From the IMG/VR virus record IMGVR_UViG_3300046167_000724: 64,000 bases of DNA; one strand, 5' to 3'. Made by a program: the position numbers and the translations under genes. The stretch is from a virus. Taxonomy: Duplodnaviria; Caudoviricetes. This document shows, in pieces, positions 9,926-26,303 of this stretch (position 1 is the first letter of the stretch; every line of letters starts with the position of its first letter). Below the pieces are notes generated by a model. The model ran no database searches and was not told the origin of the DNA. It saw only the letters and a list, made by a program, of their open reading frames with translations.

Positions 9926-9964
9926 AAAACCCTAACGCCAAACCCGTTAGGGTTTTCTTTTTTT
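9926..9964 (+). terminator. Intrinsic terminator
   Basis: aaaaccctaacg-ccaaacc-cgttagggtttt followed by a T-tract. Confidence 0.8.
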
Positions 9965-10018
9965 ATAAACAAAAATAACATTTCACCGTATAACATTAGT
10001 AATTAAAAATATTATACT

Positions 10019-10687
10019 ATGAAATTCAATAAGCCCGATAAAGCAACTGATGCATGGCAAATCATGCGCATTCAAGCAGAATTTACAAAAGGCTTTGATA
10101 CCTTTAATAAATTAGGACCATGTGTATCTGTATTCGGTTCAGCAAGAACTTCAAAAAAAGATAAATGGTACAAAGAGGCACGTAAGTTTGGTGGCCTAAT
10201 GGCAGAATCAAATATTGGCGTTATCTCAGGTGGTGGTCCAGGTATTATGGAGGCTGTTAATCAAGGCTGCCAAGAAGCTGGTGGTGTTTCGGTTGGCGTG
10301 GGTATTGAATTACCATTTGAGGCTGAAATGAATCCTTATATTAATGTAGGTGTGGAGAATAGATACTTCTTTACACGTAAAGTCATGTTCATGAAATATT
10401 CTCAAGGATATGTAGTCTTTCCAGGCGGGCTCGGTACACTCGATGAGCTATTTGAAGCACTTACATTAATTCAATGTAGTCATATACAAACGCAACCAAT
10501 TGTACTTGTAGGTAAGAAATACTGGGAAGGTCTTATGGATTGGTTAATGAATATGGTTAATGCATCTGGTAGAATGAGCTTGAAAGACTTTGATTTATTC
10601 AGAATCGTGGATTCTGCTGAAGAAGCTGCTGAAAAGATTAATGAATATCATGATAAATTCAATCCGGAAAGTAGCGTAAACTTTTAA
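10019..10687 (+). CDS. LOG family nucleotide phosphoribohydrolase (TIGR00730-like)
   Basis: VSVFGSAR, GGGPGIMEA, YFFTRKVMF, PGGLGTLDELFE. Confidence 0.9.
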   Translation: MKFNKPDKATDAWQIMRIQAEFTKGFDTFNKLGPCVSVFGSARTSKKDKWYKEARKFGGLMAESNIGVISGGGPGIMEAVNQGCQEAGGVSVGVGIELPFEAEMNPYINVGVENRYFFTRKVMFMKYSQGYVVFPGGLGTLDELFEALTLIQCSHIQTQPIVLVGKKYWEGLMDWLMNMVNASGRMSLKDFDLFRIVDSAEEAAEKINEYHDKFNPESSVNF

Positions 10688-10690
10688 TCT

Positions 10691-11149
10691 ATGAAATTTA
10701 GGAGGCTTACAGATTCAGTGCAAATAAATCTAGGTGAATATTTAAAAAAATATATAGACGAAGTGGGTGCTGAAAATGTTAGACTTTATATTGGTTGTGA
10801 TAGCCAAAATAAAAAGTCATGGACAAGTTACGCAACTACGGTAGTTATACATATTGGCAACACGGGTTGTCATGTACTCTATCAACGTGAGCGTATATCA
10901 CCTAGAATAAATGACTTCTGGACCAGGCTATGGAGAGAAGTTGAACGTTCGGTTGAAGTTGCACTATACCTACAAGAATACAATATAATTGTAGACAATA
11001 TAGATTTAGACCTAAACTCAGACCCTAATATGAAATCACATAAGTTGGTTTCAGCAGCTCGTGGTTATGTTGAGTCATTAGGTATTAAGGCTAATATTAA
11101 ACCTGAATTATTACCAGCTATTTGCGCTGCTGATAATATAGTTAAATAA
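10691..11149 (+). CDS. RNase H-like protein (YkuK/DUF458 family)
   Basis: LYIGCDSQ, RLWREVERS, DLDLN and ICAAD acidic motifs. Confidence 0.75.
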   Translation: MKFRRLTDSVQINLGEYLKKYIDEVGAENVRLYIGCDSQNKKSWTSYATTVVIHIGNTGCHVLYQRERISPRINDFWTRLWREVERSVEVALYLQEYNIIVDNIDLDLNSDPNMKSHKLVSAARGYVESLGIKANIKPELLPAICAADNIVK

Positions 11150-11201
11150 ATAAACATAATCGGCTTTCGCCATATAATAATAAAATAAATTAAGCACATA
11201 T

Positions 11202-13211
11202 ATGAATCCAGATCCTTACGATAATAATAGTGGTAAAAAACCAATTAAAAAATTAGGTAAGACTCCATTTATTGATCAGTTTGGTGAAGACTTAACGGAA
11301 CTTGCAAAGAACGGTAAATTAGACCGCATCATTGGACGTGACGCTGAAATTCTTCGCATTTGTCAAATTCTTGCACGTCGCAAGAAAAACAACCCAATCA
11401 TCTTAGGTGAACCTGGTGTTGGTAAAACCGCTATTGTGGAAGCTATAGCTCAACGTATTATTGAAGGTAAAGTTGCGCGCACCCTTATTGGTAAGCGCCT
11501 TGTATCTCTTAATATGACAATCATTGTTGCAGGTACTAAATACCGTGGTGAGTTTGAAGAGCGCATGAAAAACATCGTTGATGAACTTAAGGCTAATCCT
11601 AACATTATTTGTTTCATCGATGAAATTCACACAATCGTTGGTGCAGGTGGTGTTTCAGGTTCATTAGATGCTTCGAACATTCTTAAGCCGGCTTTAGCAC
11701 GTGGTCAAGTACAATGTATTGGCGCAACTACTCTTGACGAGTACCGTGAGAATATTGAAGATGATGGTGCACTTACACGTCGCTTCCAAGAAGTATTCAT
11801 TGAATCACCTTCTGTTGAAGACACTATTGAAATTCTAAAACGCATTAAAGACAAGTATGAAGACCACCATGCGGTTGAGTACACTGAGGATGCCATTGAA
11901 GCATGTGCTAAGCTAACTGACCGTTATATTACCTCACGTGAATTACCGGACAAGGCAATTGACTTAATGGATGAAGCTGGTGCTAAATTACACTTAGAAG
12001 AAGTTAAGGTCCCTAATTCTATTAAGAAGATTGAAATTACTGCAGAAGAACTAAAAGAAAAGAAACTTAACAGTGTTAAAGAACAGGACTACGAAAAAGC
12101 AGCAACATTTCGTGACAAAGAAATGACAAAGCGTAAAGAGCTTGATAGTGCTATTGTAGCTTGGGAAAAGTCGCTGAATGAGAATCGCAAAAAAGTTACA
12201 TTCGATATTATTGCAGAAACACTATCACAACAAACTGGAATTCCACTTTCACGCCTTTCGGGCGATGAGCATAAAATGATTAAGCAATTAGGTATTGAAC
12301 TTAAAAAGCAAATTATTGGACAAGACCAAGCCGTTGAAGTATTATCAAATGTTATTAAGCGCTCACGTGCTGGTGTATCATCTTATAAGAAACCAATTGG
12401 TTCGTTTATGTTCTTAGGACCAACCGGTGTTGGTAAAACTGAAACGGTTAAAGCACTTACACGCTATATGTTTGGTACTGAAGATAGCATGATTAGAATT
12501 GATATGTCTGAATACCAAGAAAAACACAATGTTGCACGCTTAACCGGTGCGCCTCCGGGATATGTTGGGTTTGAAGATGGTGGCCAATTAACTGAGGCTG
12601 TGAGACGCAAGCCTTATTCTGTAGTCTTGTTTGATGAAATTGAGAAAGCTCACCCAGACACGTTTAATATACTTCTACAGGTACTTGATGATGGTCGCTT
12701 AACGGATTCTTTAGGTAGAGTTGTAGATTTCACAAATACTATTATTGTAATGACATCAAACGTAGGTGCTAAGAAAGCTGCTGAGTTTGGTTCAGGTATT
12801 GGATTCTCAAGTAAATCATCTATTGCATCTGATACTGCAAAAATTGAATCAATCATTGATAAAGAACTTAAGAATAAGTTTACACCTGAGTTTTTAAATA
12901 GACTTGACGAAACTGTTTTGTTTAATCAACTTTCAAGTGAAGATATGATTAAGATTGTAGATATCGAATTAGACCAAGTTAACGAAAGAATGCTTGAGCA
13001 AGATATTGAACTTAAATTCACTAAGGTTGCCAAGGAGTTTCTAATGACTGAGGGATATGACCCAGCATACGGTGCACGTCCTCTTAAAAGGGCAGTGCAG
13101 AAGTACGTTGAAGATATTGTAGCAGATGGTATTTTAGATGGTAAAATTCTTAGTGGAAACACATATACTATCACATATAAGAAAGGTTCTGATAAACTTT
13201 TTGTAAAATAA
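11202..13211 (+). CDS. clpC: ClpC-type Hsp100 ATPase lacking the N-terminal domain
   Basis: Two AAA modules (GEPGVGKT, GPTGVGKT), UVR-type middle domain (VKEQDYEKAATFRDKE), ClpP-docking IGF loop; only ~20 aa precede the TPFIDQFG linker. Confidence 0.85.
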   Translation: MNPDPYDNNSGKKPIKKLGKTPFIDQFGEDLTELAKNGKLDRIIGRDAEILRICQILARRKKNNPIILGEPGVGKTAIVEAIAQRIIEGKVARTLIGKRLVSLNMTIIVAGTKYRGEFEERMKNIVDELKANPNIICFIDEIHTIVGAGGVSGSLDASNILKPALARGQVQCIGATTLDEYRENIEDDGALTRRFQEVFIESPSVEDTIEILKRIKDKYEDHHAVEYTEDAIEACAKLTDRYITSRELPDKAIDLMDEAGAKLHLEEVKVPNSIKKIEITAEELKEKKLNSVKEQDYEKAATFRDKEMTKRKELDSAIVAWEKSLNENRKKVTFDIIAETLSQQTGIPLSRLSGDEHKMIKQLGIELKKQIIGQDQAVEVLSNVIKRSRAGVSSYKKPIGSFMFLGPTGVGKTETVKALTRYMFGTEDSMIRIDMSEYQEKHNVARLTGAPPGYVGFEDGGQLTEAVRRKPYSVVLFDEIEKAHPDTFNILLQVLDDGRLTDSLGRVVDFTNTIIVMTSNVGAKKAAEFGSGIGFSSKSSIASDTAKIESIIDKELKNKFTPEFLNRLDETVLFNQLSSEDMIKIVDIELDQVNERMLEQDIELKFTKVAKEFLMTEGYDPAYGARPLKRAVQKYVEDIVADGILDGKILSGNTYTITYKKGSDKLFVK

Positions 13212-13244
13212 TCATATAATAAGTGATTATAATAACAACACAAT

Positions 13245-14087
13245 ATGTTTAACGATACATTCAAAAAAATTATTAAAGATATCAAACAAGATGGTCAACT
13301 CTCTCAACCTCGCGATATGCAGGTTAGAGAGTTAACTATTGACCAGCGAGAGTTTGACCCTAAATTCACAATTGCAGATTTCAAATCACGCGCATTTAAT
13401 TACAAGTACTTTGCAGGCGAACTTGCGTGGTACCTAATGAAAGACCGTGACATTGATTACATCTCAAAGTTCTCAGGCTTCTGGAAACACATCACAAACC
13501 CAGACACTAACGAAATTAATTCAAACTATGGTTCACTAATTTTCAATGACCAACTACAATGGGTTATTGATTCACTTAAAGCTGATAAGAATACACGTCA
13601 AGCGATTGCATTCTTAAATCAACCTAAGTACCAATTTGAAGGTAATAAAGATTTCGTATGTACAATGTATCTTAATTTCTTTATTCGCAATAACAAGTTA
13701 AATATGAAAGTGCAAATGCGCTCAAATGATATCTTTTATGGATTGACATTTGATGCACCTTTCTTTTCTTTTGTATACCAGCATGTTCTTATGGAACTAC
13801 AGGTAAATTATCCAAATCTAGACTTTGGTACTTATTACCATTGTGCTGATAATATTCACTTCTATGAGCGTCACTTTGAATTAGCTGATAAGATTTTAGA
13901 TGAAGGTCGATATGATATTAACCCAACAGAGGTTAGAGTTAAATTGCCGTTATTCAAAATAGAAAATGGTGAATGTATTATAACACACGTTGGCAATGAA
14001 TACATTAAAGAAGTAAACGCTTTAGTTGAAGCTGAAGCAACGCAAGAACAATATAAAGAATTATTATACAAATACGTACTAGCATAA
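13245..14087 (+). CDS. Thymidylate-synthase-superfamily enzyme, dCMP hydroxymethylase (T4 gp42)-like
   Basis: NSNYG, RQAI, KDFVCT, MRSNDIFYGLTFD, HFYERHF; Asp at the pyrimidine-specificity position. Confidence 0.7.
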   Translation: MFNDTFKKIIKDIKQDGQLSQPRDMQVRELTIDQREFDPKFTIADFKSRAFNYKYFAGELAWYLMKDRDIDYISKFSGFWKHITNPDTNEINSNYGSLIFNDQLQWVIDSLKADKNTRQAIAFLNQPKYQFEGNKDFVCTMYLNFFIRNNKLNMKVQMRSNDIFYGLTFDAPFFSFVYQHVLMELQVNYPNLDFGTYYHCADNIHFYERHFELADKILDEGRYDINPTEVRVKLPLFKIENGECIITHVGNEYIKEVNALVEAEATQEQYKELLYKYVLA

Positions 14088-14440
14088 TGGAACCAGAATT
14101 TTATACAGACAATTGGGAAGATGATAGTCATATCCCACGAATTGAAATAGAAGATTTTCAAACTATCAAGGATGTTGAATTAGAACTAGTAACTAACCAC
14201 GACGTATTTTATCGCAGAATTATAACATATGTAATTGACGTAATTGAGAATAAATTACCAGCCGACGAACCTCTTGCTATTTTAATAGATGAAAACGGCA
14301 TGGAGTATGATATGGACCTACCAGTTGATGGCTTTATTAAATCACTTACAAAATGCATGGAATATTTTACTACAATAGAAGAATATGAAACATGTACCCT
14401 AATTAAAGACTTAATTAAAATAACCGAACAAGGATTATAA
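14087..14440 (+). CDS. Acidic protein with C-terminal UvrB/C (UVR)-like motif
   Basis: KCMEYFTTIEEYETCTLIKDL; stop 1 nt upstream of the clpP start. Confidence 0.5.
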   Translation: MEPEFYTDNWEDDSHIPRIEIEDFQTIKDVELELVTNHDVFYRRIITYVIDVIENKLPADEPLAILIDENGMEYDMDLPVDGFIKSLTKCMEYFTTIEEYETCTLIKDLIKITEQGL

Positions 14441-14441
14441 T

Positions 14442-15107
14442 ATGAACTACGGAAACGAATTTAAAAAATACGCGATGAGTGACTTCAACCTCAGCTCATC
14501 AAACATGGACTACTACCAAAAGCAAATCGAAGGTTCTATGACACCTTACATTCTTGAAGAGCGTGAAATGAGAATGACACAGATGGATATCTTCTCTAGA
14601 TTGATGCGTGATCGCATTCTTTGGGTTGCAGGTCCTGTAAATGATAACATGTCAACTGTTGTACAGGCTCAACTTATGTTCTTAGACAACGCCAGTAAAG
14701 ATGACATTACGATGCACATTGATTCACCGGGTGGTTCTGTTAAATCAGGTCTATCAATGGTTGACGTTATGGAATACATCCCAACAGATATTCGCACGGT
14801 CAACACTGGAATGGCGGCTTCTATGGGCTCTGTGCTTTTAGGTGCGGGTACCAAAGGAAAGCGTGCATCACTAAGACACTCTCGTACTATGTTACACCAA
14901 TCTTCTGGTGGGTTCTCTGGAAACATTCAAGATGCTGAAGTAGATTGGAAAGAATGGCAAAAGATTAACAAAGAATTGTTTATCTTATTAGGTGAGTATT
15001 GTGGTAAGACTGCTGCAAAAGTTGCAAAGGATGCTACTCGTGATTTCTGGTTGACCGCAGATGAAGCGTTGAATTACGGTATTATTGATGAAGTTATTAG
15101 ACGATAA
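14442..15107 (+). CDS. clpP: ATP-dependent Clp protease proteolytic subunit
   Basis: MTPYILEER, DIFSRLM, IDSPGGSV, catalytic GMAASMG, MLHQ and RDFW; Bacteroidota-type N-terminus. Confidence 0.95.
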   Translation: MNYGNEFKKYAMSDFNLSSSNMDYYQKQIEGSMTPYILEEREMRMTQMDIFSRLMRDRILWVAGPVNDNMSTVVQAQLMFLDNASKDDITMHIDSPGGSVKSGLSMVDVMEYIPTDIRTVNTGMAASMGSVLLGAGTKGKRASLRHSRTMLHQSSGGFSGNIQDAEVDWKEWQKINKELFILLGEYCGKTAAKVAKDATRDFWLTADEALNYGIIDEVIRR

Positions 15108-15127
15108 AATATTAAACTCTAAACATT

Positions 15128-15159
15128 AAAAGACCCGAGGCATTTGTCTTGGGTCTTTT
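15128..15159 (+). terminator. Intrinsic terminator after clpP
   Basis: aaaagacccgag ... cttgggtctttt. Confidence 0.75.
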
Positions 15160-15209
15160 ATATTGAAACAATAACATATTATAAGCGTATAATAATAAAA
15201 TAATAACAC

Positions 15210-15515
15210 ATGAATATATTAGAAGAAGCTAACAAGATTATCAATCAACGTTCTGAAGAGAAAGAACGTATGTATGGACCCTTTGAAGATGGTATGGACC
15301 GTGCAGCTATGATTGCATCAGGAATGACCGGTAAAGATTTTACAGGTGCTGATATGTACGCGGCATTGATTGCTCTCAAGTTTAGCCGTCACTCTTATAA
15401 TTATAAAGAAGATAACCTACTTGACGCCGCAGCTTATATTGGTGGACTTGATAATTACATCAAGAAAAATGGCTATAATGATTACGGTGCTGATAATACA
15501 GCAACTGAAGAATAA
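15210..15515 (+). CDS. All-alpha NTP-pyrophosphatase-like protein (recalled as DUF6378)
   Basis: ILEEANKIIN-R...YG...LIALKFSR...DNLLDAAAY pattern. Confidence 0.65.
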   Translation: MNILEEANKIINQRSEEKERMYGPFEDGMDRAAMIASGMTGKDFTGADMYAALIALKFSRHSYNYKEDNLLDAAAYIGGLDNYIKKNGYNDYGADNTATEE

Positions 15516-16405
15516 TGAGTAAGGGTCCGTTTTCATATAGCGGAAATAAAACCAGGATTTACAATGCGTATCTTAAACCTATTATGCGAAAGTACAATAG
15601 GATTCATGAACCCTTTGTAGGTTCTGGTGTTTGTATGTACAATGCTAATAATGGTGGAATGTCAACTGATGTTGACCCCGCCGTTGTTGCAATGCACAAC
15701 GCGCTTTTAGACAGCGAATTACCCAATAGAATGCAAGCCTGTTACAATAAGTTTTTTGCAACAGGTCATACTAAAGAATCGTACAACACCTTGCGAGAAG
15801 CGTTTAATACTGACTGGATGCTTAATGGTATCACACCTAAAAATGTACACCAGCTTTATGTCTTAGCCCAAATCTCTTTCAATTCGCTTATAAGGTTTAG
15901 TAAAAATGGTTTCAATGTACCGTTTGGTGAAAAGCCATTAGATATAGAGCGTATCAAATTGCACGTTACAATATACAAGACTAAAGATATTCAAGTTACA
16001 CTATCAGGATATAATACTATAGACCTTAATAAGGTTGACAAAGATAGAGATATTATTTATCTAGACCCGCCTTATATTGCAAGTAAGTTTCAATATGGTG
16101 GTTGGGGTAAAAAAGATGAAAAGGAACTCTTGGATTTTATAACTAAATTAGACCAGCTTGGTTATAACTTTATTTTATCAAACACGTTTTCACATAAGGG
16201 TGAGATTAACACAGCACTTATAGACTGGGCAAAAGACTACAATGCATACTTGATTGACATGAGCTACAACGCGTGGTCTGCTCGTGTTACTTCTGTAGAG
16301 CGAGAAGACCAAACCGTTGAAGTACTTATTACAAACTTACAAGACGGTTTTAATGATCTTGCAAACGCGAATGCAAATAAATTATCAACAACTGAACTTT
16401 TTTAG
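15515..16405 (+). CDS. dam: DNA N6-adenine methyltransferase (Dam/D12 class)
   Basis: PFSYSGNK, EPFVGSG, RFSKNGFNVPFG, IYLDPPY. Confidence 0.85.
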   Translation: MSKGPFSYSGNKTRIYNAYLKPIMRKYNRIHEPFVGSGVCMYNANNGGMSTDVDPAVVAMHNALLDSELPNRMQACYNKFFATGHTKESYNTLREAFNTDWMLNGITPKNVHQLYVLAQISFNSLIRFSKNGFNVPFGEKPLDIERIKLHVTIYKTKDIQVTLSGYNTIDLNKVDKDRDIIYLDPPYIASKFQYGGWGKKDEKELLDFITKLDQLGYNFILSNTFSHKGEINTALIDWAKDYNAYLIDMSYNAWSARVTSVEREDQTVEVLITNLQDGFNDLANANANKLSTTELF

Positions 16406-16410
16406 TTTTA

Positions 16411-16446
16411 TATTTTTTTATGTCAAATCTTTTTTGTATATTTACA
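16411..16446 (+). promoter_or_regulatory. Degenerate early element, copy 9
   Basis: ttttttatgtcaaatcttttttgtatatttac. Confidence 0.55.
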
Positions 16447-16448
16447 AC

Positions 16449-16592
16449 ATGTCAGAAGAACTAATGGTAATGCAGGTACAGTACGACGATGCTGTCAATG
16501 CTGGAAATACTAAAGAAGCTAAAGAGCTTCTTAAAATTATTAATGGTATGCAACACACACATACTAAAGGTAAATATAAATACAATGATTAA
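16449..16592 (+). CDS. Small hypothetical protein (start revised to 16449)
   Basis: MSEELMVMQVQYDDAV... directly after copy 9. Confidence 0.5.
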   Translation: MSEELMVMQVQYDDAVNAGNTKEAKELLKIINGMQHTHTKGKYKYND

Positions 16593-16995
16593 AATAACGG
16601 GTAAACGTACACATAAAACTGCTATTAACAAAAAGGTTAAAGCGATTGCAGATGCACTTGGTATTACATGTGATGTTAACGTTTATTTTATGGACCATAC
16701 GTCACCTGATAAGTATGGGTTTGCCGCTGAAATAATGGGTAGTCAATACGTTTGTATTTTTAAAGACTGTCCAGAAGATAAACTCGGTGACGTTATTTCA
16801 CATGAAATGGTACATATATTACAAACTTTAAGAGGTGATCTTAAACATGATTATATGAATCGTACTTTTTATTGGAAGGGTGAAAAATGGGACAATGAAA
16901 GATGTGAGTCTGTTAACTATTATGATAGACCTTGGGAAGCTGAAGCAAAAAAACTTGAAAAAAAGTTAGCCGAAAACTTTTTTATGTCAAATTAA
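16585..16995 (+). CDS. Zinc metallopeptidase-like protein (HEXXH; start revised to 16585)
   Basis: VISHEMVHILQ and YYDRPWEAEA. Confidence 0.7.
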   Translation: MIKITGKRTHKTAINKKVKAIADALGITCDVNVYFMDHTSPDKYGFAAEIMGSQYVCIFKDCPEDKLGDVISHEMVHILQTLRGDLKHDYMNRTFYWKGEKWDNERCESVNYYDRPWEAEAKKLEKKLAENFFMSN

Positions 16996-17020
16996 TTGCC
17001 TATATTTACATAGTAATCAG
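16947..17020 (+). promoter_or_regulatory. Conserved early element, copy 10 (overlaps the 3' end of the upstream CDS)
   Basis: gaaaactttttatgtcaaattaattgcctatatttacatagtaatca-type match. Confidence 0.8.
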
Positions 17021-17054
17021 TTGAGAATATATAATTAAAATAAATCAAAAGACA

Positions 17055-17294
17055 ATGGCAAAGAAAAAGATTTCAGACGCAGACTTAATCGACGCACTAG
17101 AAGGACTAGATACGACGTATGACCGTCTAAGTACAGATGGTCAAAAGACAATGGATGCATTTTTTACAAAAGCAGAAAAGTCAATTAATCAAAGAGACTT
17201 AGATAAGTTTATTAAAGACTTAGAGTATGATGTACAACGCATGAATTCAGACGGTGTATATTACTATGAAATTCTTAAAAACGCAAAGTTATAA
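17055..17294 (+). CDS. Hypothetical protein
   Basis: ORF downstream of copy 10. Confidence 0.6.
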   Translation: MAKKKISDADLIDALEGLDTTYDRLSTDGQKTMDAFFTKAEKSINQRDLDKFIKDLEYDVQRMNSDGVYYYEILKNAKL

Positions 17295-17298
17295 TATT

Positions 17299-17318
17299 AG
17301 GACCTTAGGGTCCTTTTA
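17299..17318 (+). terminator. Short intrinsic terminator
   Basis: aggacc-ttag-ggtcct followed by ttt. Confidence 0.55.
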
Positions 17319-17321
17319 TTA

Positions 17322-17396
17322 TTTTGAAAATAATTTGAAAATAATTGGCTAAAAGTTTTTTTATGTCGTAAACTTTGCCTATATTTATAGTATAAC
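17322..17396 (+). promoter_or_regulatory. Conserved early element, copy 11
   Basis: ttttgaaaataatttgaaaataattggctaaaagtttttttatgtcgtaaactttgcctatatttatagtataac. Confidence 0.85.
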
Positions 17397-17435
17397 AATG
17401 AGACAATGCTGTCTCTCTTAATTTAATTAACAAAC

Positions 17436-18569
17436 ATGGTAACATTATCAGACAACGCAATCCAATCGCGCAAGTTGGAAACATTAAACGCACAAGCACT
17501 ACGCAGAACAGTAGCAGCTCGTGAAATTGAAGTTATTGACGAGAAGACAATCTTCTACAATGGCTCTCAAATCAGAATTACTAGTGAGGCTTTTAAATCA
17601 CTAATGAAAATGACGGGAATGAGTCAAACATTCATTAAGAAGTTTGAACAACTCTTCAACCCTAAAGCTAAGGCGCAATTCATTAATACAATGAAAAACG
17701 CAATGGCTTCTAACGCAGGTAGTATGCCAAACATTACAATGGTACTTAATCCTGTTAACAAAGTAATTGTTGCATTCACAAAAGATGCTTCAGAACTTAT
17801 TTCTAACTCAAACTTTGTTGAGAATGCAGAACGTATTCTTAATGGTGGTAACTTTGGTGTTACAAACTGGACGACAGACCCAACTACGGGTATTGTAACT
17901 CTTAACGCCATTAAAGAAGGTGCAACATTCTCAGTTGCAGGTGATGAGAAAGATGTATTTACTGCGGGTATTACAATGAAGAACTCACCTATTACTGGAT
18001 TTCAAGTTTCACCTTACGTAAATCGTCTTTGGTGTACTAATGGTCTTACTACCGCACTCGCACAAGACAAGTACAATATGACAAACCTAAGTGAAAAATC
18101 GCTTACTCAATTCAACGAGTACATTCAAGGACTCACACGTCGCAACTTTGTGCCTGCTGAATTTAATGAATTAGTAAACAAAGCACGTAAAACACCGGCT
18201 TCTTTAAATGAGCTTAATCGTGCAACTAACGCAATTAAAAGTGCAGGTGCTGGTGATAGATCTGGACAGTGGATACCTCTTCACGAAAACCTACTTGAAT
18301 ACTCACGTGCAGGTATTGATACTAAAGATTTCAATAATGCAGAACTTAAGAATGCAGAATCTGACCAATCGGTTTGGAGTGTTGTAAATTCAATGACTCA
18401 CTTTGCGTCACATGGTGAAGACTTAGTTGATGGCTTTGAAAGTCACAAAGGTACTGACCTTATGGTTAGAGCTGGAAACTTATTAGGTCGTGCATGGGAC
18501 TTAGGTAATCGTGTTGCGTCACCTTTCAAAGGTTTGAATTCATACCAACATGGTGAAGTACTTAATTAA
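17436..18569 (+). CDS. DUF932-like protein
   Basis: RLWCTNGL motif preceded by GITMKNS; WSVVNSMTH in the C-terminal helical region. Confidence 0.55.
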   Translation: MVTLSDNAIQSRKLETLNAQALRRTVAAREIEVIDEKTIFYNGSQIRITSEAFKSLMKMTGMSQTFIKKFEQLFNPKAKAQFINTMKNAMASNAGSMPNITMVLNPVNKVIVAFTKDASELISNSNFVENAERILNGGNFGVTNWTTDPTTGIVTLNAIKEGATFSVAGDEKDVFTAGITMKNSPITGFQVSPYVNRLWCTNGLTTALAQDKYNMTNLSEKSLTQFNEYIQGLTRRNFVPAEFNELVNKARKTPASLNELNRATNAIKSAGAGDRSGQWIPLHENLLEYSRAGIDTKDFNNAELKNAESDQSVWSVVNSMTHFASHGEDLVDGFESHKGTDLMVRAGNLLGRAWDLGNRVASPFKGLNSYQHGEVLN

Positions 18570-18593
18570 TATAGTGCTATCATAATATAATAT

Positions 18594-18622
18594 AAGGGGT
18601 GTGCGGAAGTATACCCCTTTTT
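18594..18622 (+). terminator. Intrinsic terminator with GGAA tetraloop
   Basis: aaggggtgtgc-ggaa-gtatacccctt followed by ttt. Confidence 0.8.
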
Positions 18623-18627
18623 ATTTT

Positions 18628-18690
18628 AAAATAATTGGCTAAAAGTTTTTTTATGTCGTTTATTTTGCCTATATTTACATAGTAATCAAA
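18628..18690 (+). promoter_or_regulatory. Conserved early element, copy 12
   Basis: aaaataattggctaaaagtttttttatgtcgtttattttgcctatatttacatagtaatcaa. Confidence 0.85.
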
Positions 18691-18718
18691 TGGAAGTATT
18701 AACCTTAAATTTTATATT

Positions 18719-18952
18719 ATGCCTATTACTTATTTAGACCGTAAACCCTTTTTCAACGGAATGCAAATCGACGACATCGAAATCGATGGAGTAGACACTC
18801 GTGACTATCCTGATTTTTGCGATGCTTACATTAACAACTTTTGGCTTGTTGATGGCGATGAGGTTCGTGAAGCTACTGAGGCTGAACTCGATGATATTAA
18901 TGATAACGAACAAGACTTCGTTTACGAACAAGTCTGGGACTCTTTATTCTAA
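18719..18952 (+). CDS. Conserved acidic phage hypothetical protein
   Basis: IEIDGVDTRDYPDFCDAYI...ELDDIN motif recalled from many phages. Confidence 0.7.
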   Translation: MPITYLDRKPFFNGMQIDDIEIDGVDTRDYPDFCDAYINNFWLVDGDEVREATEAELDDINDNEQDFVYEQVWDSLF

Positions 18953-19104
18953 TGGCTAAAAAGAAACCAAATAAAGTTGACGGTTATAGTGAACGTCATT
19001 TAAGTCAACTTATTCGTCGGCGCATGATTCAAAAAGATCATGGAGATGACAATAAGTATTCGCGTAAAGATAAACATAAAAAAGATTATGGCAAAGAAGA
19101 GTAA
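18952..19104 (+). CDS. Small basic protein (50 aa, not in track), weakly ArfA-like
   Basis: MAKKKPNKVDGYSERHLSQLIRRRMIQKDHGDDNKYSRKDKHKKDYGKEE; TAATG coupling. Confidence 0.5.
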   Translation: MAKKKPNKVDGYSERHLSQLIRRRMIQKDHGDDNKYSRKDKHKKDYGKEE

Positions 19105-19282
19105 AAGTGTAAAGGATGCTGTTTGTGCACGTTGTATAGGTAGCTTCAAGTTTAAAGAGCTTAATCGCGTTTATATACAAATGCATAGGCATGACCCTAA
19201 TAGTGGTTATTATGGTGTTTATGTGTGTGATAAATGTGAACCTAAGTTTGAATTAGATAGACGCGAACCAACACAGGAATAA
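19088..19282 (+). CDS. Small Zn-finger protein (start revised to 19088)
   Basis: CARC ... CDKC. Confidence 0.55.
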   Translation: MAKKSKSVKDAVCARCIGSFKFKELNRVYIQMHRHDPNSGYYGVYVCDKCEPKFELDRREPTQE

Positions 19283-19283
19283 T

Positions 19284-19487
19284 ATGCCACATAAGAAAAA
19301 GCGTACAACCAGTGTTGAAGTATTTATACACGAGGGTCAATCTTATACAACAATACACAAAGACGATAATTCAGCTTGGATTATAGAATACGATATTAAA
19401 AAAAGATTTGCAAGTGGTGGCGTAAAAAAAGTAGACAAAAGTTTTTTATTGTCAAAAAAAATCACTATATTAGCTAGTAATACTTAA
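19284..19487 (+). CDS. Hypothetical protein
   Basis: ORF in operon. Confidence 0.55.
   Translation: MPHKKKRTTSVEVFIHEGQSYTTIHKDDNSAWIIEYDIKKRFASGGVKKVDKSFLLSKKITILASNT
19424..19481 (+). promoter_or_regulatory. Degenerate early element, copy 13
   Basis: gacaaaagttttttattgtcaaaaaaaatcactatattagctagtaat. Confidence 0.5.
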
Positions 19488-19495
19488 TAACAGAT

Positions 19496-19957
19496 ATGAA
19501 ACAAACTATTTATATTGACCTTGACGGGGTCGTTGTTGATATTGAAAGATATATCAATGAAACATTTAGCCCAGATTATATTAAAAAATATGGCATTGGT
19601 ACTATAATCGATATGCATCCTCAAATATTCTATGATGCAAAACCTATGCCAGGTGCAATCGCTGCATTTCGTGAACTTGCTGACAAGCATGATGTTTATA
19701 TTCTATCAACTGCACCTTGGGATAATCCAGAATCTTGGAAAGCAAAGCGTATTTGGGTTGAAAAGCATTTGGGCGATTCAGCATACAAAAGATTAATACT
19801 ATCACATAATAAAGGTTTACTTAGAGGTGACTTCTTAGTTGATGACCGTATTAAAAATGGTGTCGCAGAATTTGAAGGAACTCATATTCACTTTGGTACA
19901 CATGACATTCCAAACTGGGATAGCGTTTTAGAACTATTTAAAATGATTCAAGAGTAA
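19496..19957 (+). CDS. 5'(3')-deoxyribonucleotidase (HAD, NT5C family)
   Basis: YIDLDGVV, KPMPGA, LSTAPW, KRLILSH, GDFLVDDR. Confidence 0.9.
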   Translation: MKQTIYIDLDGVVVDIERYINETFSPDYIKKYGIGTIIDMHPQIFYDAKPMPGAIAAFRELADKHDVYILSTAPWDNPESWKAKRIWVEKHLGDSAYKRLILSHNKGLLRGDFLVDDRIKNGVAEFEGTHIHFGTHDIPNWDSVLELFKMIQE

Positions 19958-20181
19958 TGACAATTGTAGTATTCAGAAAAACCAAAAGATCCCAACCTCA
20001 AATGGCAGTGTTTACCAAAAGTAGCATTACCGTTGATGTTGTATTAGATAGTGCTAAACGTAAACCACCAATTCCACATAGATGGATTATTGAAGACGTA
20101 GGTGTAGGTGGTGAAGGTTTAATAGGGTATTACAAAAAAAAGTACAAAAATATTAAAGTTTTTATTGATAAAACTTTTTAA
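19957..20181 (+). CDS. Hypothetical protein
   Basis: TAATG coupling. Confidence 0.55.
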   Translation: MTIVVFRKTKRSQPQMAVFTKSSITVDVVLDSAKRKPPIPHRWIIEDVGVGGEGLIGYYKKKYKNIKVFIDKTF

Positions 20182-20215
20182 TGTCAATTATTTTGCCTAT
20201 ATTAGTATAGTAATT
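20161..20215 (+). promoter_or_regulatory. Early element, copy 14 (partial)
   Basis: aaaactttttaatgtcaattattttgcctatattagtatagtaatt. Confidence 0.7.
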
Positions 20216-21077: not shown

Positions 21078-21992
21078 ATGCAAACAAATTACGGATACTG
21101 CTGTATCAACATGACACTTAAAGAAGAGAGCAATACTTATATAGGTCGCTCTATGATTAAACGTACATTTACCGAAAAGGGTATTAAATATGCTAGTGAA
21201 CTTGCACTTGCTAATGTACGTGACCTTGTTGAAATTATTAAGTGGAATGAAAAGAAAGGTATTAAACTGTACCGTATGTCTAGTGATATGTTTCCTTGGA
21301 TGTCTGAATACGAACTCAAAGACTTACCTGACTATAAAAAGATTTCAACTATACTTAAGGGTGTTGGTAATCTAGCTAAAAAGTATGGTCAACGTCTTAC
21401 ATTTCACCCTGGTCCATTTGACGTGTTAGCTTCTATAAATCCAAATGTAGTTACAAAAACAATACGAGACCTTAATCAACATGGTGAAATCATGGACCTT
21501 ATTGGTATACCTCGTACACCATATGCCGCGATTAATATTCACGTCAACACAACACAAGGCGGTAAAGAAGAAGCTTGTAAGCGATTCTGTACTAACTTTG
21601 AATTACTAGATGATTCTGTTAAGACCCGTCTTGTTGTTGAAAATGATGATAAAGAAAAGCAATACGCGGTAGAAGACTTGTATGAAGAAATTCATATGGC
21701 TATTGGTATTCCAATTACATTTGACTACCACCACCATTGGTGTCACCCTGGTATCCTAACACAAAAAGAAGCACTACGTCTTGCAGCTTCTACTTGGGGC
21801 AATACTAAACAACTTGTACACTTCTCATCTTGTAAAACAATACACGAAGATGCTACACAAACAAACAAGCGTGCCCATGCAGATTACATTTATGATTTTA
21901 TTGAAACACATGGTCTTTCACTTGATGTTGAAATTGAAGCTAAAGCTAAAGAGTTAGCAGTACAGAAATATATGAAAGAATTCTTAAGTTAA
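21078..21992 (+). CDS. uvsE: UV damage endonuclease (start revised to 21078)
   Basis: YGYCCIN, LYRMSSDMFPW, RLTFHPG, VVENDD, ITFDYHHH, AHAD, EIEAKAKE. Confidence 0.9.
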   Translation: MQTNYGYCCINMTLKEESNTYIGRSMIKRTFTEKGIKYASELALANVRDLVEIIKWNEKKGIKLYRMSSDMFPWMSEYELKDLPDYKKISTILKGVGNLAKKYGQRLTFHPGPFDVLASINPNVVTKTIRDLNQHGEIMDLIGIPRTPYAAINIHVNTTQGGKEEACKRFCTNFELLDDSVKTRLVVENDDKEKQYAVEDLYEEIHMAIGIPITFDYHHHWCHPGILTQKEALRLAASTWGNTKQLVHFSSCKTIHEDATQTNKRAHADYIYDFIETHGLSLDVEIEAKAKELAVQKYMKEFLS

Positions 21993-22002
21993 TATATATT
22001 AT

Positions 22003-22182
22003 ATGAAAAATAACAATACAGGTACTAAACAATTGAAGTGTATGAACTCACACGTTGAATCTAGTAAATGGTGGAAATATGCACCTATAGGCGGGTGTGA
22101 TGAAATTGTACAAGTTGATATAAAAACTGAAAAAGTTTTATGTTGGAGATGTACATTACGTTCAACTAGTGGTGTAAAATAA
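22003..22182 (+). CDS. Small Cys-containing protein (59 aa, not in track)
   Basis: MKNNNTGTKQLKCMNSH...GGCDEIV...VLCWRCT; followed by a terminator. Confidence 0.55.
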   Translation: MKNNNTGTKQLKCMNSHVESSKWWKYAPIGGCDEIVQVDIKTEKVLCWRCTLRSTSGVK

Positions 22183-22183
22183 T

Positions 22184-22206
22184 AAGAGGCTTCGGCCTCT
22201 TTTTTA
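22184..22206 (+). terminator. Intrinsic terminator with C(UUCG)G loop
   Basis: aagaggc-ttcg-gcctctt-ttttt, the typical T4-like form. Confidence 0.9.
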
Positions 22207-22221
22207 TTGAATATATAACTA

Positions 22222-22572
22222 ATGAAACACGTCAAAGCCTTTGAATCATTTATTTCTGTAAATGAAAAGTACATTATGTCCGACTTGGAAAATGAGTTAG
22301 GTATCGTACTAGACCTATGGGATAATGGTGACCACTTAGAATTAGGTAAAATTGAAGTTCCTAAAAGGTTAAGGGGTTCTGGTGTAGGGACTGAAGCGAT
22401 GGAACGTATTATTGCGTTTGCAGACAAAGAGGGTAAAGACATTAGACTCACACCATCAAAAGATTTTGGTGCATCTTCTGTAGCTAGACTTGAAAAGTTC
22501 TATAAGGGTTTTGACTTTGTTAAGAATAAAGATTTAAAGTATAAGGACACTATGGTCCGCTATGCTAAATAA
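22222..22572 (+). CDS. GNAT acetyltransferase with capsid-targeting-like N-terminus
   Basis: IEVPKRLRGSGVGTEAM acetyl-CoA motif A, LEKFYKGFDF; N-terminus MKHVKAFESFISVNE. Confidence 0.75.
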   Translation: MKHVKAFESFISVNEKYIMSDLENELGIVLDLWDNGDHLELGKIEVPKRLRGSGVGTEAMERIIAFADKEGKDIRLTPSKDFGASSVARLEKFYKGFDFVKNKDLKYKDTMVRYAK

Positions 22573-22573
22573 C

Positions 22574-23272
22574 ATGAATAACATATTTAATTTTACAGAT
22601 TTTGTTAATGAGGGTAGAAGCTCTTATGATAGTATTGCATCTAAACTAGTTAAGCACACTTTTAAGAAGTGGGTAAACGGTTATAAAGGTGGTGAAGCTA
22701 CACTTAACTTTACAGAAAGCTTAGTTTTAAACAGACTAGAATTTGATGTTGATTTCAACCTACATGTTACCAAGCGTGTTAAAGGTTTTGAAATACTTAA
22801 TAGCACGGGTGCTGATTCAAGAACAACTGATGATGAAGGTGACGAGCAAGACCCGTATATTATTATAGACTTCGCTGTTAATCCTGATTGGATTCCTGGT
22901 GAATGGTCTACTATTTATTTTTATTTAGCAGATGTTGTAAGACATGAGATTGAGCATATCACACAAGGTGGTGAGGATATTGGTAATTACAGAATAGGTA
23001 AACCAAATGAAGATGATGGTATGTTAAGACAGATGATTAAGATTGGTCTATTACCAAAAGCACAATATTTCATGCTACCTAAAGAGGTTGATGCAAACAT
23101 ACAGGGTCTTAGATATGAGGCTAAAAAAAGAAAAGAGTCGATGGCCGATGCTGTTAATAGATATCTAGACACGCAAGAACAATCTGGTGAAATAAATGGA
23201 AAAGAGCGTGAAGACATTCTTACACTTTGGAAAAGACGTGCAAAACAAATAGGAGGTATACCTAAATTTTAA
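22574..23272 (+). CDS. HEXXH metallopeptidase-like putative internal head protein
   Basis: VVRHEIEHITQ, downstream PKEVDA; N-terminus MNNIFNFTDFVNE. Confidence 0.6.
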   Translation: MNNIFNFTDFVNEGRSSYDSIASKLVKHTFKKWVNGYKGGEATLNFTESLVLNRLEFDVDFNLHVTKRVKGFEILNSTGADSRTTDDEGDEQDPYIIIDFAVNPDWIPGEWSTIYFYLADVVRHEIEHITQGGEDIGNYRIGKPNEDDGMLRQMIKIGLLPKAQYFMLPKEVDANIQGLRYEAKKRKESMADAVNRYLDTQEQSGEINGKEREDILTLWKRRAKQIGGIPKF

Positions 23273-23276
23273 AATT

Positions 23277-24398
23277 ATGAAACATTTAAAACTATACGAG
23301 GATTTTATTAATGAAGCAAGTCGTGATACTGAAATGGTTGATGGCATTGTTGATTTACTATTAAAGGTAGACGATATAGATAACCGTAAAGAAATGGCTA
23401 TTGAAACTATTGCAGACTTTGATACTGAAGGCGTTGAATACAACAAGGGTGAATTCCTTAGCAAAATTGGTTTAAGTGAACTAGAACTTAATGAAGCAAG
23501 GCCTGAGTTCCATGATTCAGATGCACCAGATGCATATGGTAGATTCAGGGACTTAAGCATTAAGGATTTAGCTAAGTGGTTAATTGATACACGTAACGGT
23601 GACGTTAAAAAGATTTCATCTTCACTTACACAACAAATTGTATTTAATAGAAATGATGACCCTGAATATGCTACTAAGATGGAAAAAACACGTAAAGAGG
23701 TTTATAAGCAACTTGGTAGAGAAGACTTATTAGAAGGTGATGCTAAACCAGGTCCGGACAAATATATGACTGGGCTTGATAAAGAAGACGAAACCGATAA
23801 AGAAGATCAAATCAAAAAGCAGCGTGAAATGGATGATGATGATTCATCAGCTTATAAAGAAATGCCAGGTGACGAAGAGGCTAGAGAGAAGGGTCAAGTT
23901 AAAACATCTAAGCATGTTAAGAAATACCATGAGCTTTATGGTGACGAAAAGAACGAAGCGGTATCTGAATTACAACTTGATGAAGCTGTAAAATTAGGTT
24001 GCACTGAATGTGACGAAGTTAATACACTTACTAAGTGGCAAAAGAATGGCGGTTACTGTCCATCTTGTAAAACGTCTTCATCAGCTGTTGAAGAAGGTAA
24101 GGTTAACGAAGAAAAGGCTGAAGGTGATAGAAGCAAATTAGATAACGCTGATATTGAAACAGCTCTTGCTAAAAAAGCAGAAGAGACGGGCGTACCAATT
24201 GGTCTTATTAGAATTATCATGAGACGTGGTATGGCGGCTTGGAAAACAGGTCATAGGCCAGGTGCTGGCCAAGAACAATGGGGATATGCTAGGGTTAACG
24301 CGTTCCTTACTAAAGGTGCTGGTACTTGGGGTGATGCTGATAAAGATGTTGCTAAAGAAGTTAGAGACGGTGGTTACGATAAAAACCTTAAATCATAA
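23277..24398 (+). CDS. Putative internal head protein with Zn ribbon and C-terminal domain recalled as DUF5824-like
   Basis: MKHLKLYEDFINE; CTEC...CPSC; RRGMAAWKTGHRPGAGQEQWGYARVNAF. Confidence 0.6.
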   Translation: MKHLKLYEDFINEASRDTEMVDGIVDLLLKVDDIDNRKEMAIETIADFDTEGVEYNKGEFLSKIGLSELELNEARPEFHDSDAPDAYGRFRDLSIKDLAKWLIDTRNGDVKKISSSLTQQIVFNRNDDPEYATKMEKTRKEVYKQLGREDLLEGDAKPGPDKYMTGLDKEDETDKEDQIKKQREMDDDDSSAYKEMPGDEEAREKGQVKTSKHVKKYHELYGDEKNEAVSELQLDEAVKLGCTECDEVNTLTKWQKNGGYCPSCKTSSSAVEEGKVNEEKAEGDRSKLDNADIETALAKKAEETGVPIGLIRIIMRRGMAAWKTGHRPGAGQEQWGYARVNAFLTKGAGTWGDADKDVAKEVRDGGYDKNLKS

Positions 24399-25036
24399 TG
24401 AAGAATTTATTTTTATTTGAAGAGTATATCAGGAACAATAAGATTAGTGGTGAGGCTCATCACGTATCGTATGACCCTATTGATAACGAGTCTTTGTATG
24501 AAGTTGTGAATTCTATTATGGGTGGTGAGCTTACAGAATCAGAGGTCCAAGACCTACTTGATGAAGGCTTATTCTCGTGGTTGGGTTCTTTATTTTCAAA
24601 TCCAAAAAAGAAGCGTGAGTTAGATAAGTTAGCACAAAAACTTGTTGAGGTTAGAGTTGATATTGCGAAAGTTAATATCGAAGCTGAAAATATTGAAGCA
24701 TTTGAAGAAGAGTTAAACGCAAAAGAAGATATGTATGCAAATACACTTCCAGCTAAAGCTATAAAATCAAACAAGACTTCAATGACTGACCTTAAAGGTG
24801 CGCAGTTAAAAGAACTCGAAAGTGATGTTATAATGCGAATGGATGTTATTGGTGAAGAGAATGATAAGCTTAAAACATATGTTAATAAGGTAAAGCTTGA
24901 CTCTAGAATACAATCAACTGAAAAAATTATGCGTATGGCAGACGGCCAAATTAAAAAAGTACTTTCTAAAATGGCGATGCAAGATAAAAAGAAAGATAGA
25001 GAACTAACAAAAGAACTTAAGGTTCAAATGAATTAA
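24398..25036 (+). CDS. Putative internal head protein (coiled coil)
   Basis: MKNLFLFEEYI; LDEGLFSWLGSLF. Confidence 0.55.
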   Translation: MKNLFLFEEYIRNNKISGEAHHVSYDPIDNESLYEVVNSIMGGELTESEVQDLLDEGLFSWLGSLFSNPKKKRELDKLAQKLVEVRVDIAKVNIEAENIEAFEEELNAKEDMYANTLPAKAIKSNKTSMTDLKGAQLKELESDVIMRMDVIGEENDKLKTYVNKVKLDSRIQSTEKIMRMADGQIKKVLSKMAMQDKKKDRELTKELKVQMN

Positions 25037-25039
25037 ATT

Positions 25040-25270
25040 ATGAAAAGAGTAAAATTATTCGAAGCTTTTACAAAAAGCCAAGGTGAAGAGATTAGCAAAG
25101 ATCAATTTAAGAATATTGCTAAGGGTTCAAACGTTACATATATGGGTGATGATTTTGAAGTTGCAGAGTCAGACGATACACTTCTAATATTAAAGCATAT
25201 AAAGTCTGGTAAAAAGATTCATGTTAATTACAATATGTTTAATAAAAAAGGTGCTATTTCATCTAAATAA
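25040..25270 (+). CDS. Putative internal head protein
   Basis: MKRVKLFEAF. Confidence 0.55.
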   Translation: MKRVKLFEAFTKSQGEEISKDQFKNIAKGSNVTYMGDDFEVAESDDTLLILKHIKSGKKIHVNYNMFNKKGAISSK

Positions 25271-25299
25271 AATTAAAAAACAAATAAATATCTTTACAA

Positions 25300-25307
25300 G
25301 ATATATA
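25300..25307 (+). promoter_or_regulatory. Late promoter motif GATATATA
   Basis: Also at 9859, 25525, 29248, 33084, 37671, 39873, 44896, 50883 and 60101, mostly just upstream of virion genes. Confidence 0.7.
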
Positions 25308-25322
25308 AATAAATAAAATATT

Positions 25323-25514
25323 ATGTATTTTTTAATTATTACATTAACGATTGCCGCGGTTTTATTCATTGATTATAAATTTATTAAATCAAAAAAAACT
25401 AAAACAGTTGGTGCGTCTAAAGACAAGGTTATCGTTGTAGATAAAAGGCCTACTAATATTTCGGTTAATAGAATTACTGATAATATAATTCCCACTAAGG
25501 AAGAAATGGACTAA
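25323..25514 (+). CDS. Small single-transmembrane protein
   Basis: MYFLIITLTIAAVLFI followed by a basic stretch; late motif upstream. Confidence 0.55.
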   Translation: MYFLIITLTIAAVLFIDYKFIKSKKTKTVGASKDKVIVVDKRPTNISVNRITDNIIPTKEEMD

Positions 25515-25553
25515 AATATTATTAGATATATAATAAAATAATAACATATTAAA

Positions 25554-26234
25554 ATGGCTAAATTAAAATCATTCGAAGAGTACGTTGCTGACATTGACAC
25601 GGCTGAAGAAATCGAAAACACAGAAGTTGAAATGGGCGAACCTACGGAAGCAGAAGGTGAAGAAGAAGTTGTTACAGACGAACAAGGTGAAGATGACGTT
25701 GAAGTAAAAGACAATGTTGAAGGTGAAGAAGCCGGTGAAGAAGCTGAAGAACTTGAAGCAGACACTAAAGAAGTTTCATCTGAAGAAGACAAAGGTATTG
25801 TAGATTCAGCTGATGATGAAGCACCATCTGAAGAAGATGCTATGACTGAATCTGAGGATTCTGACGACGAAGATGAAGACGATTCTGACGACGAAGATGA
25901 AGACGATTCTGACGACGAAGATGAAGACGATTCTGTAGAAGTTGTAGCGGTTGCTGAAATGCTTAAAGAGGCATATGAGGCTTGTAAAAACGAAGCTAAA
26001 GTTTGGGAAGAAGATATGCACGATGAGCATACTATTGAATCTTACCTAAAAGAAAATGCGGCATTAGTTGCTATGATGGCAGTTAATACATTAAAAGAAA
26101 TGAAAGAAGACATGACCCTTGAAATGTACGAGGCTACATGTAATGAATTAAAAGAATCTTACGCTAAGAAGATTGACGAGATGAAAGAAGCTTGGTCTGC
26201 TGAAGGTGAAGAGGTTGAAAGCGACGAAGAGTAA
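25554..26234 (+). CDS. Very acidic putative head/prohead core protein
   Basis: MAKLKSFEEYV; long E/D-rich tract; late motif upstream. Confidence 0.6.
   Translation: MAKLKSFEEYVADIDTAEEIENTEVEMGEPTEAEGEEEVVTDEQGEDDVEVKDNVEGEEAGEEAEELEADTKEVSSEEDKGIVDSADDEAPSEEDAMTESEDSDDEDEDDSDDEDEDDSDDEDEDDSVEVVAVAEMLKEAYEACKNEAKVWEEDMHDEHTIESYLKENAALVAMMAVNTLKEMKEDMTLEMYEATCNELKESYAKKIDEMKEAWSAEGEEVESDEE
25857..25934 (+). repeat. In-frame 24-nt tandem repeat (gattctgacgacgaagatgaagac) x3.25 encoding DSDDEDED
   Basis: Three perfect copies read directly. Confidence 0.95.
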
Positions 26235-26264
26235 GCGATTCATAATTTCTTGAAACATTTATTA

Positions 26265-26294
26265 AAGGTCCGTGTATAATATGCACGGACTTTT
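26265..26294 (+). terminator. Terminator hairpin overlapping the TATAAT box of the next promoter
   Basis: gtccgtgtat-aat-atgcacggac followed by tttt. Confidence 0.7.
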
Positions 26295-26303
26295 ATATTT
26301 TAT

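Follow-up and report, generated by a model that had tools for sequence, protein, structure and literature searches.

A block of seven tightly packed open reading frames (ORFs), six of which begin with a common leader of 11-13 residues, occupies positions 22222-26234 of the plus strand of a 64,000-nucleotide stretch of viral DNA (Caudoviricetes; IMG/VR record IMGVR_UViG_3300046167_000724), referred to below as the window. The leader is probably (at roughly 65%) a capsid-targeting signal, whereby the products would be packed in the phage head, trimmed by a prohead protease of the S77 family and ejected with the DNA, by analogy with the internal proteins of phage T4. The tag system itself is real, phage-specific, modular and T4-like, and the lineage has a T4-type head protease.

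The shared leader

In all six ORFs the leader follows the pattern M-x-x-h-x-x-[FY]-x-x-[FY]-[IVT], where h is a hydrophobic residue, at an identical distance from the initiator Met, and its core, [FY][ET]x[FY][IVT], starts exactly 6 residues past Met in six of six. The tagged genes are as follows (here and below, a slash marks a known or proposed cleavage point).

22222-22572, plus strand: ORF1, 116 residues; tag MKHVKAFESFISVNE/K, then a minimal GNAT acetyltransferase domain
22574-23272, plus strand: ORF2, 232 residues; tag MNNIFNFTDFVNE/GRS, then a conserved HExxH domain
23277-24398, plus strand: ORF3, a mini-polyprotein of 373 residues; tag MKHLKLYEDFINE/A, then five modules
24398-25036, plus strand: ORF4, 212 residues; tag MKNLFLFEEYI, followed by a variable stretch and, from GLFSWLGSLFSNPKKKR directly after LDE/G (E56), a conserved part
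25040-25270, plus strand: ORF5, 76 residues, basic (isoelectric point 9.4); tag MKRVKLFEAFT
25554-26234, plus strand: ORF6, 226 residues, of which 95 are Asp or Glu (42%; isoelectric point 4.05); tag MAKLKSFEEYVAD, beginning MAKLKSFEEYV

A preliminary description of this DNA had quoted these six N-termini as the starts of otherwise unrelated proteins. All six are present in their places, and BLASTP among the proteins beyond residue 16 finds no similarity (best E = 2.8). An ATG at 22562, further upstream, is not the start of ORF2; of 120 orthologs, 117 begin at the tag Met, which places the start at 22574. A six-frame scan of the window finds no further ORF N-terminus that fits the leader pattern, and a looser form, M..h..[FYLW]..[FYW][ILVMT], returns these six N-termini and one internal chance match. 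The DNA beneath the tags is poorly conserved and the codons differ between ORFs, so that conservation of the tag is at the protein level. A DNA search of the block against a phage collection gives no match.

Resemblance to the T4 capsid-targeting sequence

The likeness to the T4 capsid-targeting sequence (CTS) that the preliminary description had drawn is borne out by the T4 record (NC_000866), in which the leader of IPII and IPIII reads MKTYQEFIAE/A; IPI begins MKTFKEFTSTTTPVSTITE/A, i.e., MKTFKEFTST...ITE/A. The window tags and the T4 leader have in common the core aromatic-x-x-aromatic-[I/V/T]-x-E. Three extra residues precede this T4-like core in the window, adding the hydrophobic position 4 and placing the aromatic pair at positions 7 and 10 and the I/V/T at 11. 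The Glu at the tag end is residue 13 in ORF2 and ORF3 and residue 15 in ORF1, and the tag ends of ORF1-3 (VNE, VNE, and INE) fit the h-x-E motif of the gp21 type. The match is direct in ORF3, where YEDFINE/A aligns with T4 YQEFIAE/A, and in ORF5, whose FEAFT aligns with FKEFT of IPI and whose leader is closest in form to that of IPI.

In the T4 CTS, residues 4 and 7 are the main determinants of targeting and residues 8 and 10 those of processing; an Asp at position 10 (P1) stops cutting and leaves targeting intact, and gp21 cuts after L/I-x-E (PMC9026906). The T4 positions needed for targeting and processing are those conserved in the window tags. The internal proteins of T-even phages are diverse and have only the CTS in common (PMC3012670), and the idea that T4-like phages can use the CTS to package diverse proteins has been put forward in reviews of T4 head assembly (PMC9026906).

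The maturation site of the T4 capsid protein gp23, FGSFLTE/A (gene 23, residues 59-66), has the same aromatic-x-x-aromatic-h-x-E/A form as the CTS. To judge from this likeness, the leader may mimic the capsid protein's own cleavage region.

A possible seventh tagged gene lies far downstream of the block.

60113-60481, plus strand: ORF of 122 residues beginning MKTFLTYLEE/Q, between a tail-tube-like gene and a RuvC-like gene

The preliminary description had listed this N-terminus beside the other six. The ORF is real, and its leader is in the shorter T4 register, with aromatic residues at positions 4 and 7 followed by L8-x-E10.

Range of the tag

A second IMG/VR contig of 125.5 kb, here called G002, is colinear with window positions 2202-64000 at about 95% identity and extends 63 kb further; it serves below as a proxy for the genome of the window phage. 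It carries a second tagged cluster at 63.9-74.3 kb, just past the point where the window ends. In 761 kb of loci around relatives of ORF3, the tag pattern occurs at 101 ORF N-termini and at 10 internal sites. The 68 unique tagged proteins in these loci fall into about 31 cargo clusters. Their tags have the consensus MKHIKLFE(E/S)F(I/V/L)NE, with G, A, S, or K as the next residue; the h-x-E end is present in 48 of the 68.

The tag extends to more distant phages. LR756500.1, a 462-kb uncultured phage (capsid protein 48.6% identical), has 32 N-terminal matches in several clusters, against 2 internal ones, and a tag consensus of its own, MKYIKEYEEFLxE. A strict DNA pattern encoding M-K-x-h-K-x-[FY]-E-x-F-h-x-E gives at least 181 matches in 120 stretches of IMG/VR, at least 165 of them at the first ATG of an ORF; two or more matches fall in at least 32 of the stretches. 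The same pattern occurs 57 times, always singly, in 596 Gb of prokaryote genomes, and only 32 of the 57 lie in an ORF of at least 50 residues. The nearest cultured phage by capsid protein is Tenacibaculum phage PTm1 (34% identity), where no clear tag is seen in the 95 kb scanned.

Leader sequences seem, from such comparisons, to differ between lineages. In Flavobacterium phage immuto 2-6A, three genes (positions 103806, 117631, and 118632) share M(E/A)(N/D)..F(D/N)LKKFLVENKLT, which also ends in h-x-E.

Head genes and the prohead protease in relatives

G002 encodes a head module in the gene order of T4: a T4-type portal (PF07230, E = 8e-67), a small acidic ORF starting MIIKTFEQFIAIKE, a Peptidase_S77 protein with a scaffold-like tail, and the capsid protein Gp23 (PF07068, E = 1e-43). 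The protease matches PF03420 at 48.6 bits. When a profile built from 42 of its relatives, in which His71 and Ser126/127 are invariant, is compared with the PDB, the sole match is 5JBL, T4 gp21 (E = 5e-7). LR756500.1 and two other related contigs (G003 and G005) likewise have genes for S77 proteases; the 64-kb window contains none. Complex prediction with the G002 protease domain and residues 1-40 of ORF2 gives a score of 0.00, which is no evidence either way, and an alignment of the N-termini of the capsid proteins of G002, LR756500.1, PTm1, and T4 does not locate the maturation site of the lineage.

The G002 protease (96060-98207) is fused to an acidic, repeat-containing tail of 540 residues, with two copies of a unit of about 45 residues (NDGDDVTG.EADDLKSDAKEINNDVNAPEDKSAELEADLAKDAAPSK). 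In phage PTm1 the same fusion is labelled 'prohead core scaffolding protein and protease'. Following the capsid gene in G002 (99962-101212) is an acidic ORF of 416 residues that starts MKIKLNEAIKSFDMFINE/R, with a tag-like core displaced 8 residues from Met.

The cargo and its modules

The cargo proteins give no match to an internal-protein family in PHROGs. The acetyltransferase named in the preliminary description is supported by Pfam: ORF1 matches the GNAT model PF00583 at 23.9 bits, above the cut-off of 20.7, and the acetyl-CoA motif A (R/Q-x-x-G-x-G/A) is present as RGSGVG. For ORF2, described earlier as a metalloprotease, the motif is conserved and the fold similarity weak. H124-E125-x-x-H128 is invariant in an alignment of 42 sequences, as is E13 of the tag, and the AlphaFold2 model is confident (predicted local distance difference test score 89.5), with residues 1-14, the tag, disordered. 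Pfam and, by profile search, PDB sequences contain no match; Foldseek with the model finds nothing in the PDB at E<=0.001; VIA-align lists several zincins, only at Z 3-4.6 (best 4.6, in the noise range), and the leads from Atlas are all below 0.9. ORF2 is a candidate zincin-like metalloprotease on the strength of its motif. ORF4 is rich in coiled coil and has an amphipathic GLFSWLGSLFS segment. The label of an enzyme payload given to the block thus fits ORF1 and perhaps ORF2; ORF4, with its coiled coils, and ORF6, with its acidic composition, may be core or scaffold-type proteins rather than enzymes.

ORF3 is built of the following modules behind its tag.

Residues 14-73: module A, ending LNE/A; unique to the window
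Residues 74-153: module B, ending LLE/G
Residues 154-236: module C
Residues 237-278: zinc ribbon, ending VNE/E
Residues 279-373: DUF5824 (PF19141, 58 bits against a cut-off of 25)

Modules B and C, the zinc ribbon, and DUF5824 are each distributed differently among the loci. The C-terminal part of ORF3 is found in three forms: directly behind the tag in proteins of about 180 residues, within tagged proteins of 700-1300 residues, and, untagged, fused to a cytidylyltransferase in pelagiphage-like contigs. The ORF2 domain likewise travels. It is the last module of the 907-residue gp088 of Flavobacterium phage immuto, right after VMAE/GRYD, where it begins at the residue that follows the predicted ORF2 cut, and an AlphaFold DB cluster match places it at residues 476-701 of a protein of 1203 residues. 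The modular tag-plus-cargo arrangement proposed earlier is supported: in relatives the tag heads some 25-30 unrelated cargo families, and the same cargo domains also occur untagged or in polyproteins, where they directly follow h-x-E junctions.

The borders of the modules coincide with h-x-E. Relative to its counterpart in G002, ORF3 of the window has an extra module of 60 residues, module A, that runs exactly from after FINE/ to LELNE/ and has no relative in any fetched locus. Module C follows LLE/G at the point where single-module relatives carry the h-x-E of the tag, and the zinc ribbon is flanked by h-x-E sites as well. The first 56 residues of ORF4 differ between the window and G002, and its conserved part begins right after L/M/V-D-E/G in each case: LDE/G in the window, MLDE/G in G002, and VDE/G in a fused relative (L017). 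By this comparison of two genomes, the ORF3-ORF4 region is a local hot spot of module exchange. When window positions 23316-23495 and 24398-24570 are set against G002 positions 21551-23160, ORF3 gains module A, and its zinc-ribbon segment and the first 40-56 residues of ORF4 are replaced. The tag core is retained through all changes of module between window and G002.

Cleavage motifs and the possible fate of the cargo

In ORF1 and in ORF2, [ILV]xE occurs once, at the tag end. The mature part of ORF2 has none, against 3.7 expected (P about 0.007), and in 117 orthologs the mature part averages 0.97 against 3.48 expected, while the control motifs [ILV]xD, [ILV]xK, and Ex[ILV] show no such depletion. 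For the untagged proteins of the window, the mean observed-to-expected ratio of [ILV]xE is 1.17.

Sites of this kind bear on what becomes of the proteins once they are in the prohead. Instead of a delivered payload, the tag might bring assembly or size-determining components, or propeptide carriers, into the prohead core, where they would be degraded and expelled like T4 gp22, gp67, and gp68. Such a fate would suit the coiled-coil-rich ORF4 and the strongly acidic ORF6, both scaffold-like, and the 6-9 [ILV]xE sites found in each of ORF3, ORF4, and ORF6; it would also agree with the long acidic, scaffold-like tail of the relative's protease and with the tagged small acidic ORF between the portal and protease genes of G002. 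However, ORF1 and ORF2 appear to have compact enzyme-like folds (GNAT and HExxH, respectively) with their sole h-x-E at the tag end, the avoidance of the motif by the ORF2 family fits proteins that survive the protease, and the sites in ORF3 lie at module borders, not inside modules. A core-component role is unlikely.

Other possible roles for the leader

A role outside the capsid is slightly less probable again. The leader could be a docking helix for another partner, a signal for localisation or degradation, or an aid to translation starts that have no Shine-Dalgarno sequence, of which none is present in the window; with such upstream regions, the sequence of the start region could matter for translation. 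The link between tag and head is indirect, and three of the six tags have no cleavable Glu, both of which leave room for a function of this kind. Nonetheless, the differing codons under the tag point to selection on the peptide, and the invariant positions are those that matter in the T4 CTS. Conservation also extends to the Glu, with E13 invariant in the 42 aligned members of the ORF2 family and the tag conserved across the 120 orthologs retrieved. The same h-x-E recurs at internal module junctions, away from any translation start. Finally, the tag is confined to viral contigs, and it accompanies an S77 protease wherever head genes were examined (G002, LR756500.1, G003, and G005).

MK starts are common in this AT-rich genome, yet a chance or compositional likeness is refuted by the counts, since a five-position pattern recurs in one register in six of seven adjacent genes and N-terminal matches far outnumber internal ones (the six-frame scan of the 64 kb gives a single internal match, the relatives 101 against 10, and LR756500.1 32 against 2).

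Upstream boxes and the setting of the phage

Several further features mark the limits of the block or lie within it.

22184-22201, plus strand: terminator-like hairpin and T run, at the upstream edge of the block
22210-22218, plus strand: AATATATAA box, 3 nt ahead of ORF1; candidate late-type promoter element
25323-25514, plus strand: untagged ORF of 63 residues with one N-terminal transmembrane helix, within the block; conserved in G002
26263-26295, plus strand: terminator-like hairpin of 15 pairs, at the downstream edge of the block

The box ahead of ORF1 has the form (G/A)ATATATA(A), which also precedes the transmembrane ORF, ORF6, the ORF at 60113, and several baseplate and tail genes. Boxes of this form head genes from 22 to 60 kb (22210-60101), on the plus strand throughout. 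Eight of the ten copies of GATATATA, all on the plus strand, are followed by a gene start within 45 nt, among them the box at 60101 ahead of the 60113 ORF. The motif ATATATAA is not enriched in the window relative to shuffles (11 against 13.4); what stands out is solely where it sits, ahead of gene starts. Cassettes at 3.4-20.2 kb (3386-20194) are headed by another box, TGCCTATAT, which occurs on both strands near 3.4-4.4 kb. By sequence and position the two classes look like early and late promoter elements, which suggests late expression of the tagged block. Contigs from metatranscriptomes (three runs, two studies) are near-identical to pieces of the block; their neighbours are covered as well and DNA carry-over is possible, so that they establish neither transcription nor its timing.

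Elsewhere the window contains early-type cassettes and genes of nucleotide metabolism (UvdE, dCMP deaminase), with baseplate and tail genes starting at about 29 kb. LR756500.1 and the Lak megaphages have the baseplate proteins nearest to that of the window. The stretch is present in seawater metagenomes of 13 studies, and one ORF2 ortholog is binned with a metagenome-assembled genome of the Flavobacteriales; the source is an uncultured marine, T4-related giant phage that probably infects members of this order. An ORF of 59 residues at 22003-22182, with a zinc-ribbon-like CxxH...CxxC pattern, directly precedes the terminator that opens the block. The product of 61531-62448 ends in LDSFLDGLDI, which was considered as a C-terminal tag and rejected: the protein is a single-strand-binding protein of the gp32 type (phrog_224, E = 3e-42), whose acidic tail, DDDLDSFLDGLDI, resembles the tag core. 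Acidic C-terminal tails are usual in gp32-type single-strand-binding proteins.

Proposed mechanism and its implications

Under the capsid-targeting reading, the six genes would form one late-type transcription unit. Each product would carry an amphipathic leader whose positions 4, 7, 10, and 11 are hydrophobic or aromatic, equivalent to the T4 CTS with one additional N-terminal turn, and by this leader the protein would dock on the scaffolding core as the prohead assembles. The gp21-type S77 protease would then cut after the Glu of hydrophobic-x-Glu: after E15 in ORF1, after E13 in ORF2 and ORF3, and probably after E56 in ORF4. ORF3 would probably be cut at its module junctions too, at E73, E153, and around 236/278. 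Once cut, the mature proteins would remain beside the DNA in the head until infection and then exit. Their delivery before any phage transcription, as the preliminary description had it, would follow from the analogy with IPI and Alt of T4.

Several observations weigh against this reading. ORF4, ORF5, and ORF6 have no Glu at the canonical tag end: the likely site of ORF4 (LDE/G) comes only at E56, ORF5 has none nearby, and ORF6 has Asp where the other tags have Glu, its earliest [ILV]xE being at residue 135. The protease is seen only in G002, 95% identical to the window, and in more distant relatives. The leader is missing from the T4 core proteins gp67 and gp68, and the tagged small ORF beside the portal gene is for that reason only suggestive. 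The untagged dCMP deaminase, too, has 0 [ILV]xE against 3.4 expected, so that depletion of the motif is, taken alone, weak evidence. Late timing rests on the shared upstream box, and docking, cleavage, retention in the head, and ejection are drawn from the analogy with T4.

A wider proposition has a little under an even chance, namely that a giant T4-related phage clade, marine and other, uses the CTS as a general address label on dozens of genes per genome, that the protease cuts the cargo at h-x-E joints, and that the virion delivers a large, fast-evolving set of proteins. If the tag works as in T4, it offers a way to list the proteins brought into the cell by uncultured giant phages ahead of phage gene expression, a cargo that is normally invisible in sequence data. 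The cargo would then be a source of candidate enzymes for host takeover or counter-defence (the GNAT, the HExxH protein, and the widespread DUF5824 module), and domains without a function, such as DUF5824, would gain a context as head-packaged cargo. The same would explain why identical modules appear as single genes in some phages and in polyproteins in others.

Comparison with known systems

Head-internal proteins that are processed by a diverged gp21 homolog are known from phiKZ, 201phi2-1, and SPN3US, where many are cut after Glu (gp175/gp245 proteases), and where paralogous or identical N-terminal propeptides have been proposed to target proteins into the prohead (PMC5694885; PMC9026906). 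These propeptides mostly exceed 100 residues, whereas the window leader is short and T4-like, and their motif is S/A-x-E, whereas that of the window has I/L/V at P3. The polyvalent proteins of phages and conjugative elements combine unrelated enzymatic modules in one polypeptide and are encoded among virion genes; packaging and injection have been predicted for them (Iyer et al., 2017; PMC5512222). They are alike in that the domains of ORF2 and ORF3 occur in such long proteins in relatives. However, the modules of the window are mostly separate genes, each with its own tag, and the autopeptidase embedded in polyvalent proteins has as its counterpart here the proposed processing by the head protease at h-x-E.

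The closest parallel is with IPI, IPII, IPIII, and Alt of T4 and the T-even phages, which have a short leader on unrelated proteins and are processed by gp21 (Mullaney and Black, 1996, cited in PMC9026906 and PMC3012670). Both systems show an aromatic pair three residues apart, then I/V/T-x-E and a small residue, and both have clustered genes with highly variable cargo. A head module of T4-type portal, S77 protease, and Gp23 forms the genomic background in the 95% relative. There are differences in scale and form. The T4 CTS has 10 residues and the window tag 13, with the extra hydrophobic position 4. Tagged genes are many more in this lineage, at least 10 in the 125 kb of G002 and about 28 in LR756500.1, and among the cargo, known from its genes, are enzyme-like domains and proteins of several modules joined at internal h-x-E sites. 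The system would represent a known mechanism in a new lineage, in which the tag is longer, the cargo genes are more numerous, and the cargo includes multi-module proteins.

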